Positions 1 through 29,356 of a stretch of 62,796 nt of DNA are shown piece by piece. A model generated the notes under the pieces. It did not search any database. It saw only the letters and a program-made list of their open reading frames with translations, and was not told where the DNA came from. The stretch covers positions 1 through 62,796 of the forward strand of contig CALVIP010000003.1 in NCBI GenBank assembly GCA_944331715.1, in the 5' to 3' direction. The number at the start of each line of letters is the position of its first letter. Positions within the stretch are counted from its first letter, which is position 1. This stretch comes from an uncultured Bacilli bacterium. Lineage in GTDB: Bacteria; Bacillota_I; Bacilli_A; RF39; UBA660. The translations under genes and the position numbers were made by a program.

Positions 1-246
1 AATCATTGGTCAGTAGAAAATAAATTACATTTTCATTTAGATTTTACATTTAGAGAAGATGCAAATACAACAAAGAACAAAGATGCTTTAATGAACTTAC
101 AGATAATAAATAAATTTACGTTAGGGATATTAAATAAAGTTAAACCTTATTATAACAATATAAGTTTAAAGAAAATAAGAAAGACAATAACTTTTAATTT
201 TGAGAAAAACTTTATAACAATGCTTTGTTATTTAGCTTTATGTTAG
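1..246 (+). mobile_element. 3' end of ISAs1-family transposase (runs off window start)
   Basis: Frame 1 reads NHWSVENKLHFHLDFTFREDANT...LCYLALC*; HW-x-x-EN-x-LH-x-x-LD-x-x-F-x-ED is the conserved C-terminal ISAs1 motif. Not in ORF track. Confidence 0.85.
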
Positions 247-403: not shown

Positions 404-1285
404 TTATTTATTCTTTTCCATCATTTTCTTAGCCATTTTTAAGATAAATTTATTAGTTGCAGGTACTTTTTCTCTGTCTTTCTTATAACCTAGTGTTTTT
501 AGAGAACTATCACTAGAATCAACACACAAATCTACTCCAGAGATAAAACTAGCCATGCTGGATCCTAAAAATACAATAGGTCCTGCCATTTCCTCACTAG
601 TAGCAAGACGATGAGCGACTCCTGTTTCAGCAAGTAGAGCTTCTTCTCCACCAGCCATCTTTTCAAATTCATCTTTCATGCCTGTATCAGTAGAGCCTGG
701 CATTACATTATTAACTCTAATACCTTGTTTACCTAGTTTAACTGATGCTTCACATGCATACTCTGATAAACATCTTTTAGAATACATATAGGCAAAAGTT
801 GAAGGAGATATTTTTGCAAGAGGTTCTACTACCCTCTCTACTTCTTCCCAAGTACCTGCATTTACTACTTTACTTTGCTCTTTTCTAAACTCTTTCCAAT
901 TAAGACCTGCAGTACTAGTTACATAGACAATACTGTCACCCTTACTCATTCTCTTAGTTAAATACTCTTCTGTAATATAGAAGTTTGCAGTATAATTACA
1001 ATTAAAAGTTGTCATATAATCTGTTTTAGAACCTGATAATCCTGCTACTCCAAAAAAACAGTCAATATGTTCAGGAAGTTTACTAAATAAGTTATCTATT
1101 TCTTCTTTTTTAGACAAATCACACTTTATAAACTCAGTTATTCCCTTAACATCACAAGGATTTAAGTCAACTGCATAACATCTAGCTCCTAAATCAACTA
1201 ACATTTCTACTGTTGCCTTACCCATACCGCTACTAGCTCCTGTTACTACACAAACTTTATCCTTATAACCAAAATAATCTTTCAT
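404..1285 (-). CDS. SDR family oxidoreductase (3-alpha-HSDH/carbonyl reductase-like)
   Basis: TGASSGMG Rossmann motif, YMYSK catalytic YxxxK, NNVMPG motif. Confidence 0.9.
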   Translation of the reverse strand: MKDYFGYKDKVCVVTGASSGMGKATVEMLVDLGARCYAVDLNPCDVKGITEFIKCDLSKKEEIDNLFSKLPEHIDCFFGVAGLSGSKTDYMTTFNCNYTANFYITEEYLTKRMSKGDSIVYVTSTAGLNWKEFRKEQSKVVNAGTWEEVERVVEPLAKISPSTFAYMYSKRCLSEYACEASVKLGKQGIRVNNVMPGSTDTGMKDEFEKMAGGEEALLAETGVAHRLATSEEMAGPIVFLGSSMASFISGVDLCVDSSDSSLKTLGYKKDREKVPATNKFILKMAKKMMEKNK

Positions 1286-1374
1286 ATAAATCCTACCTTT
1301 CTAACTAAAGTATAGATAGACAAAAGAAAAAAGTAAATAATTTATTAAAAATTAGATACTTTTTTACAGTATAT

Positions 1375-1529
1375 ATGATTTTCTAGTAGAATAATTTATT
1401 ACTCGCGGGCCATCTACAAGCGAGATAATCTGCAGTGTAGAATAATTTATTACTCGCATCCATCTACAAGCGAGAACATCTCCGTAAAAAGAAAATCATC
1501 TTACATATATTATATGAAGTTTCCCTCAT
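1375..1529 (-). ncRNA. Array C: two pseudoknot repeats (orphan type III antitoxin-like RNA) with leader hairpin and closing stem
   Basis: Repeats at 1386-1425 and 1437-1475; minus strand CUCGC-UU-GUAGA-UGG(AU/CCC)-GCGAG-UAAUAAAUUAU-UCUAC; 10-bp inverted repeat 1375-1384/1490-1499; leader AUGAGG-GAAA-CUUCAU at 1514-1529. Confidence 0.65.
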
Positions 1530-1542
1530 CTAATACGTTTTA

Positions 1543-1572
1543 ATCATATCATAAATGGTACTAGTATGTAAA
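1543..1572 (-). promoter_or_regulatory. sigma-A-type promoter of array C
   Basis: TTTACA-18 nt-TATGAT with extended TG. Confidence 0.65.
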
Positions 1573-1587
1573 GATATTTTTTTATTT

Positions 1588-1764
1588 TCATTTTTTACTT
1601 TTTTTAAACTTATTTTTTGTTTTTTTAGGTTTCTCTTCATCAAAATCAATAATACCTTCCCATTCAAAAGGTTTAAGTCCTTTAACAGCTTCACCTGCAG
1701 AAATTATTGGACGCTTTTGTTGAAAAAAGCCTTCAGGAAACTTTGTTATGTTTTTCTTTGCCAT
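1588..1764 (-). CDS. 58-aa basic small protein (candidate antitoxin), below ORF-track cutoff
   Basis: MAKKNITKFPEGFFQQKRPIISAGEAVKGLKPFEWEGIIDFDEEKPKKTKNKFKKSKK; RBS GGGAGGG; own promoter TTGACT-17-TAATAT at 1802-1830. Confidence 0.7.
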   Translation of the reverse strand: MAKKNITKFPEGFFQQKRPIISAGEAVKGLKPFEWEGIIDFDEEKPKKTKNKFKKSKK

Positions 1765-1859
1765 ATAACATTCCCTCCCATATAGAATTTAATACAATTA
1801 TATATTATCATTAATGTAACAAGCAGTCAATATTTTTAAATACCATTAACAAAATTAAA

Positions 1860-2267
1860 TTATAAATTTGTAATAGTATCTTTATTTTTATTTTCAACAT
1901 TTAAACTTATAACTAATTTTATTAACTTATCTAACATATCATCACTTAAACGACCAATTACTTTATATTCTATTTTATCTTTCTTAAAGTAGAATAAATC
2001 GTCTGCCCTAATATAACCAGTTTTGTTGTTAACATTTCTACCTTTAATTTTATTAGGTACTATCTCTAGATTACTTTTAATTTTTAACTTTCTTTTCTTA
2101 TGGTTTTCACTATGAAAACTACACATAATATTAGAAATGAAATCATATGAGTAACTCTCTATTATCCCTGCCTCATCACTGATTACCACAAAAGAGTGTT
2201 TAGGAACAACAGTGCCATTCCTATCTTTAAATTCCTTAACAACAATTATGTCTCCAACTCTACACAT
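1860..2267 (-). CDS. PemK/MazF-fold-like protein (candidate toxin)
   Basis: Likely start MCRVGDIIVV (RBS AAGGAGG); GDI..V, HSFVVIS and GYIRADDL pattern resemble MazF/Kid fold; palindrome ACACAAG/CTTGTGT upstream at 2293-2314. Confidence 0.5.
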   Translation of the reverse strand: MCRVGDIIVVKEFKDRNGTVVPKHSFVVISDEAGIIESYSYDFISNIMCSFHSENHKKRKLKIKSNLEIVPNKIKGRNVNNKTGYIRADDLFYFKKDKIEYKVIGRLSDDMLDKLIKLVISLNVENKNKDTITNL

Positions 2268-2363
2268 AGATACCCTCCTTTCTTTAATATTCACACAAGA
2301 AGAAATACTTGTGTCTACTATATAATTAACGATATCTTTATTTTTGCTCTTTTAATTCAACAC

Positions 2364-2413: not shown

Positions 2414-4780
2414 TTACTTATCTCTTAATTCTACATCTAAAGATGTTGTTACTTTCTTAATGATATTATCAAATACATTCATAACTTCTTCATCAGTTAA
2501 TGTTCTATTACTATCCATAAATGTTAGATTATAGGCAATAGACTTTTTATTATTATCAAGTTTTTCATAAACATCGAATACCTTAATGTCACTAAGTAAT
2601 CTTCCTCCTGCTTTTTTAATAACTGTCTCTACTTCACTTGATAGCATAGCCTTAGGAACAATGAATGCTACATCTTTAACGATTGTTGGATATTTTGATG
2701 CTTCTTTATATTTTAATGGTTTAACTTTAGTCATTAAAGCATTTAAAGATAACTCACAAACATATACTTCATCCTTACATACTTTAGGATGAACTCTACC
2801 CATAATACCTATTCTTTTACGGTCAAGTAAAATATCTGCAGAAATTCCTGGATGTAAGTCTGAGACATTACTTTTAACAAAACTATAACGGTTTTTAAAG
2901 CCTAGATAATCAAGAATACTTTCTACTATTCCTTTCATTAGATAGAAGTCTACTTTCATAGAGCCTTTCCAAGAATTAGTAATATAATTACCTTTCATTA
3001 AGAATGCAATTTTAGATTCCTCAGTATAAGCTTTATCATAAGTTTTAGCGATCTCATAGATATTTATATCTTCTACTTTACGAGCTTTATTATAATTATA
3101 AACATTCATTAATGATGGAATTAAACTTGTTCTAACAACACTCTTATCAATACTCATTGGATTAGGTAAAGTAATTCTTTCTTTTTCTTCATAATCAAAG
3201 CTAGAAGCCATTGAAGGTGATACTAAAGTATAAGTTTTAACTTCATTAAGTCCTAAACTTCTAAGACGTTTAGATATAGCTTTACGGTATTTAACATCTC
3301 CAACATACTCACCACGTTTTACTTCAATATTAGGAAGAGTTCCTTTTATATTTTGATAACCATAAAGTCTACCAATCTCTTCTGCTATATCATTAACATT
3401 AGAGTCAATATCTAGTCTTCTACTAGGAATAGTTACAGTAAATTTACCATCTTTAATAGTATATGGAAAGTCTAGTCTTTCTAACTCATGTTTCATATCT
3501 TTTTCATCTATTTTAAGTCCTAGCATTTTGTCTACTTCAATAGGATAGAATTCTACTACTTTAGGAGTCTTATCTAGTTTATCGTGCATAACAGTTCCAG
3601 AAAGAACAGTTGCATTAGCATATTTTTCTAATAAGTGGCAAGCTCTATCAAGGGCCATATTAGTATATTCGTAACTTAATCCTTTACCATATCTTATACT
3701 AGCTTCACTTCTAAGGTCTAAATGACTAGCAGTATATCTAATACTAACAGGATCAAAGATAGCTGCTTCTATCAAGATATTTTTAGTAGTAGGTTCTACT
3801 TCAGTATTAAGTCCTCCCATAACACCGGCAACACAAATAGCGTCACTACCATTACTAATAACAATATCACTATTTTTTAAAGTTCTTTCCTTACCATCTA
3901 AAGTAGTAATTAACTCATTATCTTTAGCATCTCTAACTAATATTTTATCACCTAGAGAGTCTTTATCAAAGAAATGAAGTGGTTGACCAAACTCTAACAT
4001 AACATAATTAGAAATATCAACAACATTGTTTATTGGTCTCATACCTACTGATAATAATCTTCTTTTAATAAAATCAGGTGACTCTTTAATTTCAACATTA
4101 GTAACCATCTTTGCTAAGTAATAAGGACATTTAGGTGTATCAACTTCTAGTTTAAAATGATTATTAACGTTATCTTTATCTTCTTTATAAGATAAATCAG
4201 GTAATTTTACTTTTCTATTTAATATTGCAGATATTTCATAAGCAAAACCAATATGATAGTAACAGTCATTATTACGATGTTTATGAATATCTAACTCATA
4301 TAAAGTATCTTCTAATCCTAAATATACAAGAGGGTCTTTTCCAACAGGAGCAGTTTCAGTTAATTCTTCAATACCTTTAGCATAAGTCTCATCAGTCTTC
4401 TCTTCAAGACCTAATTCATATAAAGCACAAATCATACCATTAGATTCTACTCCTCTAATCTTACTTGATTTGATAGCAAAGTCACCTGGAAGCACAGCAC
4501 CTGGTAATGCTACTATTACTTTAAGTCCTTCACGTACATTAGGAGCACCACAAACTATTTGTTGTAGTTCTTCTTTACCTATATCTACCTGACATAAATG
4601 TAAATGGTCACTATCTGGATGGTCTATACAACTAACAACTTTACCAATTACTAAATTATCTATTTTATTAGTAATAACTTTTTCAATATTAATACCAGAT
4701 TCTGTTATTTTAACTGCAAGCTTCTCTAAATCTTGATCACTTATATCAATATAATCTTTTACCCATTCTAAATTAATCAT
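2414..4780 (-). CDS. pheT: Phenylalanyl-tRNA synthetase beta subunit
   Basis: VCGAPNV tRNA-binding domain, RPINNVVDISNYVMLEFGQPLHFFD, FDX-ACB C-terminus; start refined to MINLEWV. Confidence 0.97.
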   Translation of the reverse strand: MINLEWVKDYIDISDQDLEKLAVKITESGINIEKVITNKIDNLVIGKVVSCIDHPDSDHLHLCQVDIGKEELQQIVCGAPNVREGLKVIVALPGAVLPGDFAIKSSKIRGVESNGMICALYELGLEEKTDETYAKGIEELTETAPVGKDPLVYLGLEDTLYELDIHKHRNNDCYYHIGFAYEISAILNRKVKLPDLSYKEDKDNVNNHFKLEVDTPKCPYYLAKMVTNVEIKESPDFIKRRLLSVGMRPINNVVDISNYVMLEFGQPLHFFDKDSLGDKILVRDAKDNELITTLDGKERTLKNSDIVISNGSDAICVAGVMGGLNTEVEPTTKNILIEAAIFDPVSIRYTASHLDLRSEASIRYGKGLSYEYTNMALDRACHLLEKYANATVLSGTVMHDKLDKTPKVVEFYPIEVDKMLGLKIDEKDMKHELERLDFPYTIKDGKFTVTIPSRRLDIDSNVNDIAEEIGRLYGYQNIKGTLPNIEVKRGEYVGDVKYRKAISKRLRSLGLNEVKTYTLVSPSMASSFDYEEKERITLPNPMSIDKSVVRTSLIPSLMNVYNYNKARKVEDINIYEIAKTYDKAYTEESKIAFLMKGNYITNSWKGSMKVDFYLMKGIVESILDYLGFKNRYSFVKSNVSDLHPGISADILLDRKRIGIMGRVHPKVCKDEVYVCELSLNALMTKVKPLKYKEASKYPTIVKDVAFIVPKAMLSSEVETVIKKAGGRLLSDIKVFDVYEKLDNNKKSIAYNLTFMDSNRTLTDEEVMNVFDNIIKKVTTSLDVELRDK

Positions 4781-5822
4781 TACTACTAATCTCCCCTCTA
4801 TCAAAATTATTAACTTCTCTTAAGTCTGTATTATAGAAAACTCTTAAGTCATTAATACCATATTTAAGCATAGCAACTCTCTCTGCTCCAAAACCAAAGG
4901 CAAAACCACTCCAAACACTAGGATCAAAACCACTCATTCTAAGAACATCTGGATGAACTACTCCTGCTCCACAGATAGTAATAAATCCTGTATTTTTACA
5001 AATATTACAACCATCACCTTTACAATTAAAACAACTAATATCTACTTCAACTGATGGTTCTGTAAACTGATAATAACTTGGTCTTAATCTAACTTCAACA
5101 CTATCACCAAATAACTTTTTAAATACAACTTCAAAAGTACCTTTTAAGTCAGATAGTGATATATCTTTATCTACAAGTAATCCTTCTATTTGCATAAATT
5201 GATGAGAATGAGTCGCATCATCATCATCTCTTCTATAAGTCTTACCAGGACAAATAACTCTAACTGGTTTCTTACCTTCCGCTTTTAACATTGTCCTAAC
5301 TTGAACTGGTGAAGTTTGACTTCTAAGTAATATCTCTTCTCCTTCAATATAGAATGTATCTTGAGCATCTCTTGCAGGATGTCCTTTAGGTATATTTAAC
5401 ATCTCAAAGTTATATTTATCTTCCTCAACTTCAGGTCCATCAACTACATCATAACCCATAGACATAAAGATTTCTTCTACTTCTTCTATTAATTTCTCTA
5501 AGATATTAGGAGAACCTATACTAACTTTAGTAGAAGGTAAACTAATATCAATAGATTCACTTTCTAACTTTTTATTTAACTCATCAGTTTCAAGTTTCTC
5601 TTTCAATGCATTATACTTTTCATTAAAGTAAGTTCTTAGTGAATTAACTTCCATACCGAACTCTTTTTTCTTATCATTAGGAACATCTTTAATCTTACTA
5701 TTAAGTTCTGTAATAATACCTTTCTTACTTAAATATTTAATGTGTAGTTCATTAAGTTCTTTTAAGTCTTTAACACTTTCTAAATCTTTCTCAATTTCTT
5801 TTTTAATATCTTCTATATTCAT
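4773..5822 (-). CDS. pheS: Phenylalanyl-tRNA synthetase alpha subunit
   Basis: HPARDAQDTFY, LRSQTSPVQ, FTEPSVEVD, GFAFGFGAERVAML motifs. Confidence 0.98.
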   Translation of the reverse strand: MNIEDIKKEIEKDLESVKDLKELNELHIKYLSKKGIITELNSKIKDVPNDKKKEFGMEVNSLRTYFNEKYNALKEKLETDELNKKLESESIDISLPSTKVSIGSPNILEKLIEEVEEIFMSMGYDVVDGPEVEEDKYNFEMLNIPKGHPARDAQDTFYIEGEEILLRSQTSPVQVRTMLKAEGKKPVRVICPGKTYRRDDDDATHSHQFMQIEGLLVDKDISLSDLKGTFEVVFKKLFGDSVEVRLRPSYYQFTEPSVEVDISCFNCKGDGCNICKNTGFITICGAGVVHPDVLRMSGFDPSVWSGFAFGFGAERVAMLKYGINDLRVFYNTDLREVNNFDRGEISSND

Positions 5823-6461: not shown

Positions 6462-6670
6462 AATAAAAAATAACTATAACTTAAGGGTGTTAAACTAACA
6501 CTGTACCACCTTAATTTATAGTTATTGTAACTATCTCATTAATCTTAACGCGAATTAACGCCTACAATTTTGTTATAGGAACTCTTAAGACGAATTCATA
6601 AACTATTCTTATCTATTTCCACCTACCATAGACTCTCTAAAAAAGAAATCATTTACTACTACTTCTTAAT
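6462..6670 (-). promoter_or_regulatory. T-box riboswitch (Phe)
   Basis: AGAGAG..GGUGGAAA stem I motifs, GAA-UUC specifier (UUC at 6592-6594), AAGGUGGUACAG T-box at 6501-6512, terminator with U-tract; upstream of HAD-pheS-pheT. Confidence 0.85.
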
Positions 6671-6727
6671 CACAGTCATTTCAAAAATTACTATACCATA
6701 TTTAAAAGTTAATTGTAAATAGAAAAT

Positions 6728-20899: not shown

Positions 20900-21108
20900 T
20901 TTGCAACAGTATAAACATATGATATACTTTAAATGCAGTAAATGAGTGACATCTCATATAAAGATAAAAGAGGTTCACACTACTCCTTTAAAAAGTGTAT
21001 ATAAAGAGGTTGACGTTACTCCTAAAAAACGTATAAAGGTTCACACTATTCCTATAAAAGTGCATAAAAGTATAAGGGCGATACCTCTATTGGTATTACC
21101 CTATTTTT
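20900..21108 (+). ncRNA. Array A: promoter, leader, three degenerate ToxI-like pseudoknot repeats and terminator; no toxin gene follows
   Basis: TTTGCA-17-TATACT; leader ATGAGTGACATCTCAT (20942-20957); repeats 20964-21000, 21001-21032, 21033-21063; terminator 21075-21108. Confidence 0.7.
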
Positions 21109-21150: not shown

Positions 21151-21369
21151 TTTACAACAATATAATCTTATGATATACTTTAGATGTATTAAATGAGTGA
21201 TACCTCATATAATAACAAAAGTCGGAATTCCCTTGCCACAGTAGGGAGCTAACAAAAGTCGGAATTCCCTTGCCATAGTAGGGAGCTAACAAAAGTCGGA
21301 ATTCCCTTGCCACAGTAGGGAGCTAAAAAACATGGGCGATTTTCATTTAGAAAGTCGTCCTTTTCTTTT
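21151..21369 (+). ncRNA. toxI: Array B: ToxI/AbiQ-type antitoxin RNA, 3 x 37-nt repeats, with promoter, leader and terminator
   Basis: TTTACA-17-TATACT; leader ATGAGTGATACCTCAT (21193-21208); AACAAAAGTCGGAATTCCCTTGCCA(C/T)AGTAGGGAGCT at 21214, 21251, 21288; terminator 21334-21369; toxN directly downstream. Confidence 0.9.
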
Positions 21370-21390
21370 ATTACGTAAGGGGGATTATTT

Positions 21391-21891
21391 ATGAAAACAC
21401 TTAAAATATACTATATTGATGAAAATTATATTAAATATTTAAGAAAATTTGATAAGATAGTACCGTATAATAAGACTCATACAAGACCATATATTGGTGT
21501 TGTATATGAATATAATGGGATTAATTATTTTGCACCTTTATCTAGTCCAAAACAAAAACATATAACAATGAATGAAAATGCTCTAGATATATTTAAAATC
21601 AATGATGGAATTTGGGGAATAGTTAATATTAATAATATGATTCCTGCTCCTACCTATTGTTTGACTGAAGTACTTCCACAAGTAAAAGATGAAAAGTACA
21701 GAAACTTAATATTAAATCAAACTAATTATTTAAATAGACATAAGTATAAATTACTATCTAAAGTTAAACAGTTTAGATTACGTTATGATAAAGGGTATTT
21801 ATCTAGCAGATTAAGAAAAAGATGTTGCAACTTTAAATTATTAGAAGAAAAATGTATGGAATATGAAAACTTAATACTAGAAACTAGTTAA
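21391..21891 (+). CDS. toxN: Type III TA endoribonuclease toxin, ToxN/AbiQ family
   Basis: IYYIDENYIKYLRKFD, RPYIGVV, YFAPLSSPK, NINNMIP, CCNFKLLEEKC; canonical repeats-terminator-toxin layout. Confidence 0.92.
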   Translation: MKTLKIYYIDENYIKYLRKFDKIVPYNKTHTRPYIGVVYEYNGINYFAPLSSPKQKHITMNENALDIFKINDGIWGIVNINNMIPAPTYCLTEVLPQVKDEKYRNLILNQTNYLNRHKYKLLSKVKQFRLRYDKGYLSSRLRKRCCNFKLLEEKCMEYENLILETS

Positions 21892-28858: not shown

Positions 28859-29356
28859 CTATAGAAGTTTAACTATAACTTCTTTTTTATTACTATCTAT
28901 TTTTACAAACTCTTTATGATAAGGAACTAATACTTCATTGTTATTTATTAATAATCTAAGTATCTTATAATTATTACCAGTCTCTTCTACATCAAGAATC
29001 TTACCCTCTATATTATCAGTAGTTTTAACTTTATAGGTTATAAGTTCACTATCTAAGATATCTTCATTATTAAGATTAATATCTTCTTTAGATTTATATA
29101 CTTTCTTACCCTTCAAGAATAATACTTCATTTATATTATTAAAACCTTCAAAAGTAACCATATCATAGTCTTTATGAACTCTATAACTAGTTATTTCATA
29201 AGATTTATCATCTATAATTAAATTACTTCCTATTTTAAATATCTCTTCTCTTTGTTTAGTAGTTAAGTTATCTTTAATCCTAAGTTCTCCTTTAATACCA
29301 TGAGTATTAACTATTTTACCTATATATAATTTATTCATTAGATCCATCCATTTCAT
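28859..29356 (-). CDS. rimM: 16S rRNA processing protein RimM
   Basis: IGKIVNTHGIKGE; synteny with trmD. Confidence 0.93.
   Translation of the reverse strand: MKWMDLMNKLYIGKIVNTHGIKGELRIKDNLTTKQREEIFKIGSNLIIDDKSYEITSYRVHKDYDMVTFEGFNNINEVLFLKGKKVYKSKEDINLNNEDILDSELITYKVKTTDNIEGKILDVEETGNNYKILRLLINNNEVLVPYHKEFVKIDSNKKEVIVKLL

Follow-up and report, generated by a model that had tools for sequence, protein, structure and literature searches.

A probable stand-alone cptI antitoxin gene beside pheT in an uncultured gut Bacilli bacterium

What is a tandem pair of nearly identical RNA pseudoknots doing in front of an oxidoreductase gene, with no toxin beside it? The question is raised by one end of the window, by which we mean the whole 62,796-nt stretch of DNA that was analysed (positions 1 to 62,796 of contig CALVIP010000003.1, assembly GCA_944331715.1, from an uncultured Bacilli bacterium). 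The minus strand of this region carries, in order, pheT (4804..2414), a 144-aa ORF, a 58-aa ORF (1764..1588), the pseudoknot array, which we call array C, and a gene for an SDR-family oxidoreductase (1285..404). A preliminary description of this DNA had likened array C to CptI antitoxin RNAs and had pointed to a closing stem around the array, and to the absence of a downstream toxin, as atypical. Both features do depart from canonical CptIN loci, and the next minus-strand gene after the array is indeed that of the SDR oxidoreductase. Our analysis indicates that array C is very probably a stand-alone cptI gene, the antitoxin half of a CptIN system whose toxin was lost or never came along. This identification draws on sequence anatomy, toxin-linked homologues and covariation, from which we infer folding in vivo, transcription, processing and antitoxic activity.

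Array C comprises 2.2 repeats (two full and a partial third) with a period of 50/51 nt, and it is flanked by elements of a transcription unit. Listed in the direction of the minus strand, the features are:

1543..1572, minus strand: predicted promoter-like site of the array, TTTACA-18-TG-n-TATGAT (extended -10), from a consensus scan with 10/12 matches
1507..1536, minus strand: leader hairpin 1, with an AUGAGG-GAAA-CUUCAU core, at the predicted 5' end of the transcript (from folding)
1484..1504, minus strand: leader hairpin 2, GUAAGA-UGAUUUUCU-UUUUAC (from folding), whose loop is the 5' arm of the closing stem and whose 3' arm is CUUUUUACGG
1476..1483, minus strand: 5' linker GGAGAUGU, running on into U1475 and resembling the inter-repeat linker (linker family [GC][AG]A[AG]AU[GU][UA]U across arrays)
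1475..1437, minus strand: CptI-type unit 1, U-CUCGC-UU-GUAGA-UGG-AU-GCGAG-UAAUAAAUUAU-UCUAC, an H-type pseudoknot scoring 68.4 bits (E 7e-15) with covariance model R1
1436..1425, minus strand: inter-repeat linker ACUGCAGAUUAU, the same in toxin-linked arrays (for example, L017)
about 1425..1386, minus strand: CptI-type unit 2, identical to unit 1 except for CCC in place of AU in the post-UGG loop, scoring 68.2 bits with model R1
1375..1384, minus strand: partial third repeat AGAAAAUCAU (xGAAAAUnnU), which doubles as the 3' arm of the closing stem, a 10-bp pairing formed in the minimum-free-energy fold
1327..1365, minus strand: AU-rich terminator-like hairpin AAAAAAGUA..UACUUUUUU enclosing an inner stem, UAAUUU/AAAUUA, and then CUUUUG (from folding)
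1309..1337, minus strand: promoter-like site of the SDR gene, TTTACT-17-TATACT, from a consensus scan, just before the SDR ribosome-binding site
404..1285, minus strand: SDR-family oxidoreductase gene, 293 aa (Pfam adh_short_C2 9.6e-24, adh_short 3.1e-21), the array's neighbour and outside the RNA element

The first stem (S1) of unit 1 joins CUCGC (1474..1470) to GCGAG (1457..1453), the second (S2) joins GUAGA (1467..1463) to UCUAC (1441..1437), and the 11-nt, A/U-rich loop 3, UAAUAAAUUAU, occupies 1452..1442; the stems of each unit interleave into an H-type pseudoknot, with unit lengths of 39/40 nt. Two units with these stems and an A-rich loop 3 had already been reported and are present, on the minus strand, and the sequence bears out the accompanying remark that the copies differ only in the post-UGG loop (loop 2) and the linkers. 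The 40-nt unit found no match in 100 shuffles. Every array of the family is terminated by an N-GAAAAU-type partial repeat, presumed to be the 3' processing site. The 5' linker is presumed to be the first site of processing by CptN, by analogy with CptI of Eubacterium rectale, which is cut after A45, in a single-stranded tail (PMC4627078).

When 60 related genomes were searched with blastn, the array region turned up in many members of the same genus; several of these relatives have, after the array, a terminator containing G+C and then a 162-170-aa ORF starting M..K.GYLYHI. Arrays of the same unit in sister genomes lie 60-175 nt upstream of a gene matching CptN: the toxin of one relative (L015:1725-2213, genome G021) aligned over its full length with the CptN chain 4RMO_A (E 1.3e-15) and scored 133.6 bits with the NCBIfam model NF047359 ('type III toxin-antitoxin system CptIN family toxin'), whose cut-off is 90. 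Pfam assigned this toxin to no family and PADLOC gave a weak AbiQ match (E 0.0055), which, with partner toxins that pass the CptN model and a unit of 50 nt, speaks against classing the array as ToxI.

Covariation gives the second line of evidence. We built the unit covariance model R1 from a 14-unit seed in which S2 was modelled and S1 was not, so that the alignment leans towards S2; four of the five S2 pairs in this seed change on both sides (GUAGA/UCUAC, CCGGA/UCCGG, CUGGG/CCCAG, CCAGA/UCUGG, UCGGG/CCCGA). When the set was widened with 80 further CptN loci from public genomes, and the units found there, to 52 distinct units, 96.5% of cells were paired (30-48% with the partners slid), and compensatory changes appeared in 7 of the 10 pseudoknot pairs: all five of S2 and two of S1, where U-A changes to C-G, and C-G to G-C or U-A. 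G.U pairs are confined to the minus-strand reading, which fixes the strand together with the promoter, the terminator and the orientation of the toxins. The likeness to CptI, proposed in the preliminary description, is thus supported by CptN-linked homologous arrays and by covariation of both stems. Neither of the outcomes that it had named as fatal, a known riboswitch match or a lack of covariation, was found; Rfam returned nothing for window positions 1200-1900 at gathering score or at E ≤ 10, with two chance eukaryotic matches elsewhere in the stretch.

The cptIN family was defined by Blower et al. 2012 (PMC3401426), with repeats of 40-48 nt in 1.9-3.4 copies, and its E. rectale member (Rao et al. 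2015, PMC4627078; PDB 4RMO) has a repeat period of 45 nt; we derived the sequence of the latter from primers in PMC4627078. E. rectale CptI and array C share about two tandem repeats behind a promoter of their own (predicted in array C) with a terminator at the end, single-stranded inter-repeat tails (again predicted in array C) and a GUUU-type 5' tail. They also share an H-type pseudoknot with two 5-bp stems, a first loop of 1-2 bases and a long loop, rich in A, around an AUAAAU core; for array C the stems are backed by covariation and the three-dimensional fold is predicted. The toxin of E. rectale CptI is CptN, as are the cognate toxins of the homologues of array C. The differences are a period of 50/51 nt, slightly above the published range, a UGG+2-3-nt loop between S2 and S1, an 11-nt A/U loop in place of one of 9 nt, a pair of leader hairpins, the 10-bp inverted repeat peculiar to its lineage, and the absence of an adjacent toxin; a cptN gene downstream, behind the terminator, is found in homologous arrays and not in array C. 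ToxI/ToxIN and AbiQ follow the same logic (a pseudoknot antitoxin encoded in repeats, with a terminator and an endoribonuclease toxin after them), but ToxI units measure 34-37 nt and are held by base triplexes, and their toxin belongs to a family other than CptN.

Promoter, repeats, partial repeat and terminator form the architecture of a type III locus, and the promoter-like site, leader hairpins, terminator and second promoter-like site together make array C look like its own transcription unit. The array promoter-like site is conserved before homologous arrays in relatives. The stem of leader hairpin 1 varies compensatorily between arrays (AUGAGG/CUUCAU, AUGAAA/UUUCAU, CACU/AGUG), and at the position of hairpin 2 other array types have tight hairpins (GUAAGUA-GUUU-UACUUAC, GUAAGUUA-UA-UAACUUAC). 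The terminator-like hairpin (-8.9 kcal/mol, z -3.86, with 0 of 200 shuffles as good) is kept in all SDR-linked loci; it was missed by the consensus scan because that scan requires G+C pairs.

Leader hairpin 1 is also common to array C and the ToxI-like arrays at 20.9-21.2 kb of the window. The first of these (20967-21059) consists of 36-nt units in 2.7 copies with a terminator and no toxin, and the second, directly after it (21213-21891), of 37-nt units in 3.2 copies with a terminator and a ToxN/AbiQ-like 166-aa gene (21391-21891); both have the promoter-plus-hairpin leader of the array C type. Elsewhere, a 367-nt tandem repeat in 2.9 copies (L032, G013:C28, 1645-2711) has copies that start with the same promoter and a GAUGA(A/G)GGAAACUUCAU hairpin leader, each followed by a different short non-coding unit, so the use of this leader module extends past type III arrays.

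The closing stem had been proposed to clamp the pair of pseudoknots. The perfect 10-bp inverted repeat on which that idea rested is present, joining AUGAUUUUCU (1499..1490) to AGAAAAUCAU (1384..1375). Between flanks this AT-rich, a 10-bp Watson-Crick run turns up in 1.06% of shuffles, and in 0.34% of pairs of genomic segments at equal spacing, which makes the stem unusual, not overwhelmingly so. It reaches 9-10 bp in six SDR-linked genomes only, shrinks to 6 bp in G015, is interrupted by a U.U mismatch in G018 and is missing from G025, where hairpin 2 is deleted; other array types have AU runs of just 5-8 bp at this position, and no compensatory change was seen among the compared loci. The comparison therefore lends no support to a conserved clamp, a role that we reject for a pairing restricted to one lineage, free of compensation, broken or missing in three relatives and at a chance level of ~0.3-1%. 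The closing stem is a real, lineage-limited feature that may stabilise the uncut precursor. A second flank pairing that crosses the first, CUUUUUACGG (1491..1482) with CUGUAAAAAAG (1369..1359), exists much as it had been described, with one bulged A. We treat this long-range pairing as putative: one of its arms also serves leader hairpin 2, as that hairpin's 3' arm, and the other serves the terminator hairpin, as its 5' arm. Folding predicts both of these local hairpins, and the loci hardly vary there.

If array C is an antitoxin gene, where is its toxin? No CptN is encoded on the window's contig. The genome's own assembly, which is 87.6% complete, has a single CptN, on contig C19, that is 53% identical to the GUAGA-type toxin and has a two-unit array of a different type (S2 CUGGA/UCCAG and CUAGG/CCUGG) and a terminator of its own. 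When a tree of 84 CptN proteins was labelled by their arrays, GUAGA arrays paired only with one long-branch clade (support 100/100, branch 0.74), and the C19 toxin fell in the CUGGA/CCAGG clade. The cognate toxin of array C is therefore not in this assembly, in whose missing part it could still lie, and, with the toxin gene absent, array C is an orphan antitoxin.

Such absence is not rare in the genus. Model R1 found units in 42 of its 53 genomes, up to 12 per genome. We tallied the 92 arrays formed by the first 150 units listed, crossed with a CptN profile search: an intact CptN lies 60-175 nt downstream of 47 and a broken CptN downstream of 8, while within 600 nt of the other 37, which include a few next to contig ends, there is no toxin. 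Among uncultured gut Bacilli, a subfamily of CptIN whose repeats measure 50 nt has expanded, to as many as 12 units per 1.5-Mb genome, and some 40% of these 92 arrays have lost their toxin and keep promoter, pseudoknots and terminator. Array C belongs to a known type of element and has been orphaned, a state that is common in this group of uncultured gut bacteria. A limited literature search, which included a 2016 review (PMC5086642) and a 2025 tenpIN survey (PMC12283969), brought up no mention of chromosomal toxin-less type III arrays.

Elsewhere in the genus, orphans were visibly made by toxin deletion. The direct example is L159 (G029:C36:12000-13100), in which an intact two-unit array and terminator are followed by just the first four codons of cptN (MKVK) and then by an unrelated gene.

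Other arrangements were also encountered. L152 (G015:C37, 331-417) is an array of one further unit type (S2 AUGGU/ACCAU, loop UAAUAAAUCAG) that has a promoter and a terminator and lacks a toxin. Two complete cptIN loci of different unit types stand in tandem, and several genomes have a cptI-cptN-cptI layout, at dnaG and pheT sites, in which the second array is toxin-less and sometimes of another type (both arrangements among G019:C36:12218-13775, L058, L090, L092 and L118). A chimeric single unit in L062 (G074:C18, ~29074-29126) has S2 arms from two types, CUGGG with UCCGG, which pair through G.U, and apparently arose by recombination between neighbouring repeats.

The site beside pheT is a variable slot across genomes, with the following layouts on record:

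G021: pheT-167aa-cptI-cptN-58aa-cptI-rplU
G025 and G018: pheT-cptI-cptN-58aa-cptI-SDR
this genome and five others: pheT-144aa-58aa-cptI-SDR
G023 and G015: pheT-cptI-SDR
G022: pheT-144aa-58aa-SDR, with the array deleted

Searches of Pfam, NCBIfam, PADLOC and PDB sequences placed neither the 144-aa ORF (1860-2294, minus strand) nor the 58-aa ORF (1588-1764, minus strand) in a family. The 144-aa gene fills the place taken by 167aa-cptI-cptN elsewhere in the genus, and the 58-aa gene stays in both layouts.

These observations are consistent with the following scheme. The sigma-A-type promoter (1572..1543) would start a transcript of ~200 nt on the minus strand, which would run through the two 5' hairpins, the repeats and the partial third repeat to the AU-rich terminator. 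By analogy with E. rectale CptIN, CptN would cut such a precursor in its single-stranded linkers and stay bound to the 50-nt pseudoknots, which would block its active site. Array C would most likely be the remainder of a cptIN cassette at the variable site beside pheT, whose toxin was lost or never accompanied the array, and judging from its sequence signals it is probably still transcribed and left unprocessed. That an antitoxin should outlive its toxin is expected, since loss of the toxin is harmless and loss of the antitoxin first is lethal (PMC7354431).

As for its present state, we lean towards a remnant of fairly recent date that still works as an RNA gene. The 36-nt pseudoknot core of eight orthologous SDR-linked orphans has 2 variable columns, both with changes that keep G.U pairs, and this proportion is lower than in the downstream sequence (22/100, p 0.039) or in all flanks (61/177, p 0.0002), in a comparison of closely related MAGs whose kinship inflates apparent conservation. 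Units of orphan and toxin-linked arrays score equally on the model (p 0.41). A conserved core and equal scores fit a maintained function better than a decaying relic.

The same results bear on a possible but doubtful alternative, that selection keeps array C as stand-alone immunity against incoming CptN of the GUAGA clade on phages or mobile elements, in the manner of an anti-addiction module or decoy or as a chromosomal counterpart of phage pseudo-ToxI. Besides the conserved core, with both its substitutions pairing as G.U, and the undegraded state of orphan units relative to toxin-linked ones, the idea gains from the intact promoter, hairpins and terminator of array C, from the recurrence of orphans at several sites (G015, at 90% completeness, holds three or more arrays without an intact cptN) and from a predicted viral contig that carries a full cptIN of this family. 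However, orphans are oftener reduced to a single unit (20/37, against 11/47 toxin-linked arrays, among the first 150 units listed), G006 retains a truncated array and G022 has lost it by deletion, and the conservation, measured on closely related loci, may be owed to recent origin or to exchange with toxin-linked arrays. Those CptI RNAs that have been tested are also toxin-specific (PMC4627078), so any immunity would be narrow.

Precedents for antitoxins without toxins are of two kinds. Pseudo-ToxI of Pectobacterium phage TE, selected as an abortive-infection escape, is phage-borne and can neutralise a toxin in trans (PMC5086642); like array C it consists of antitoxin-type repeats without a toxin gene, but array C is chromosomal, beside pheT and the SDR gene. 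Type II orphan antitoxins, or anti-addiction modules, possibly protect against incoming cognate toxins (PMC7354431); they are proteins, whereas array C is a repeat RNA that would normally need the toxin for its processing. If orphan arrays are maintained, they amount to an RNA form of anti-addiction immunity, relevant to the spread and decay of cptIN cassettes; if they are not, they offer a clean record of the expected order of toxin-antitoxin decay, toxin first. A bolder conjecture, in which we place somewhat less credence than in immunity for array C itself, is that toxin-less cptI arrays are maintained chromosomal RNA 'vaccines' in small-genome gut Bacilli, each independently promoted and pre-arming the cell against one CptN clade on phages or mobile elements, with the closing stem of the SDR lineage stabilising the uncut precursor.

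A phage origin of array C itself was considered and dropped, as no orphan array was found in the phage and viral data searched: blastn of 50,697 phage records gave no match to array C, and a pattern scan of IMG/VR gave one chance match inside a coding region and one complete cptIN locus. The latter (L151, IMGVR_UViG_3300011008_002676, 4590-5000) lies on a 63-kb predicted viral contig and has two units, a terminator and a CptN gene.

It is improbable that array C serves instead as an extra antitoxin, acting in trans on the genome's sole CptN, that on contig C19. The two array types have in common an S1 of 4-5 bp, the UGG, a UAAUAAAU loop and AAUGUU-like linkers, and at 53% identity the toxins are closer to each other than the pairs at 35-44% for which no cross-inhibition was seen (PMC4627078). 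The C19 toxin, however, is already provided with an array of two units and a terminator, the two array types differ in S2 and in their linkers, and the exclusive pairing of GUAGA arrays with the long-branch CptN clade points to co-evolved specificity.

We give very little weight to a reversed-order type III system in which the 144-aa protein encoded upstream (2294..1860), on the far side of the 58-aa gene, would be the toxin and array C its antitoxin. That gene does sit in the cptI-cptN slot of other genomes, between pheT and the 58-aa gene, and it has no annotated family, but we reject the protein as a partner toxin because gene and array are inherited separately (G022 keeps the gene, at 95.8% identity, without a GUAGA array, and G023 and G015 show the reverse) and because similarity of the protein could be detected neither to CptN (hhalign probability 0.1%) nor to solved structures.

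Small H-type pseudoknots whose loops are rich in A are known to sense ligands, preQ1-I and SAM-II being examples, and array C lies on the same strand as the SDR gene, 100-250 nt upstream of its start, but a tandem riboswitch or cis-regulatory leader controlling that gene is the least credible reading of all and already contradicted: no Rfam covariance model matches the array even at E ≤ 10, the same arrays lie in front of cptN, rplU, dnaG or unrelated genes elsewhere, the SDR gene is set apart from the array by a terminator-like hairpin and a promoter-like site of its own, and in G022, where array and array promoter are deleted, the SDR promoter-like stretch and the SDR gene remain. By this genomic evidence array C appears independent of the SDR gene and not its regulator. 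Type III antitoxins are invisible to ORF-based annotation and no Rfam model matches them here, so such arrays are easily misread as riboswitches or as new RNA classes.

The SDR protein itself matched the NCBIfam SDR families below their cut-offs only. At the contig start, an open frame runs off the end of the sequence (window 1-246, plus strand), with no Pfam match at E ≤ 0.01; it looks like the C-terminus of an ISAs1-type transposase. The window's sole Rfam match is a T-box leader (RF00230, 109.7 bits) at 6480-6682 on the minus strand.
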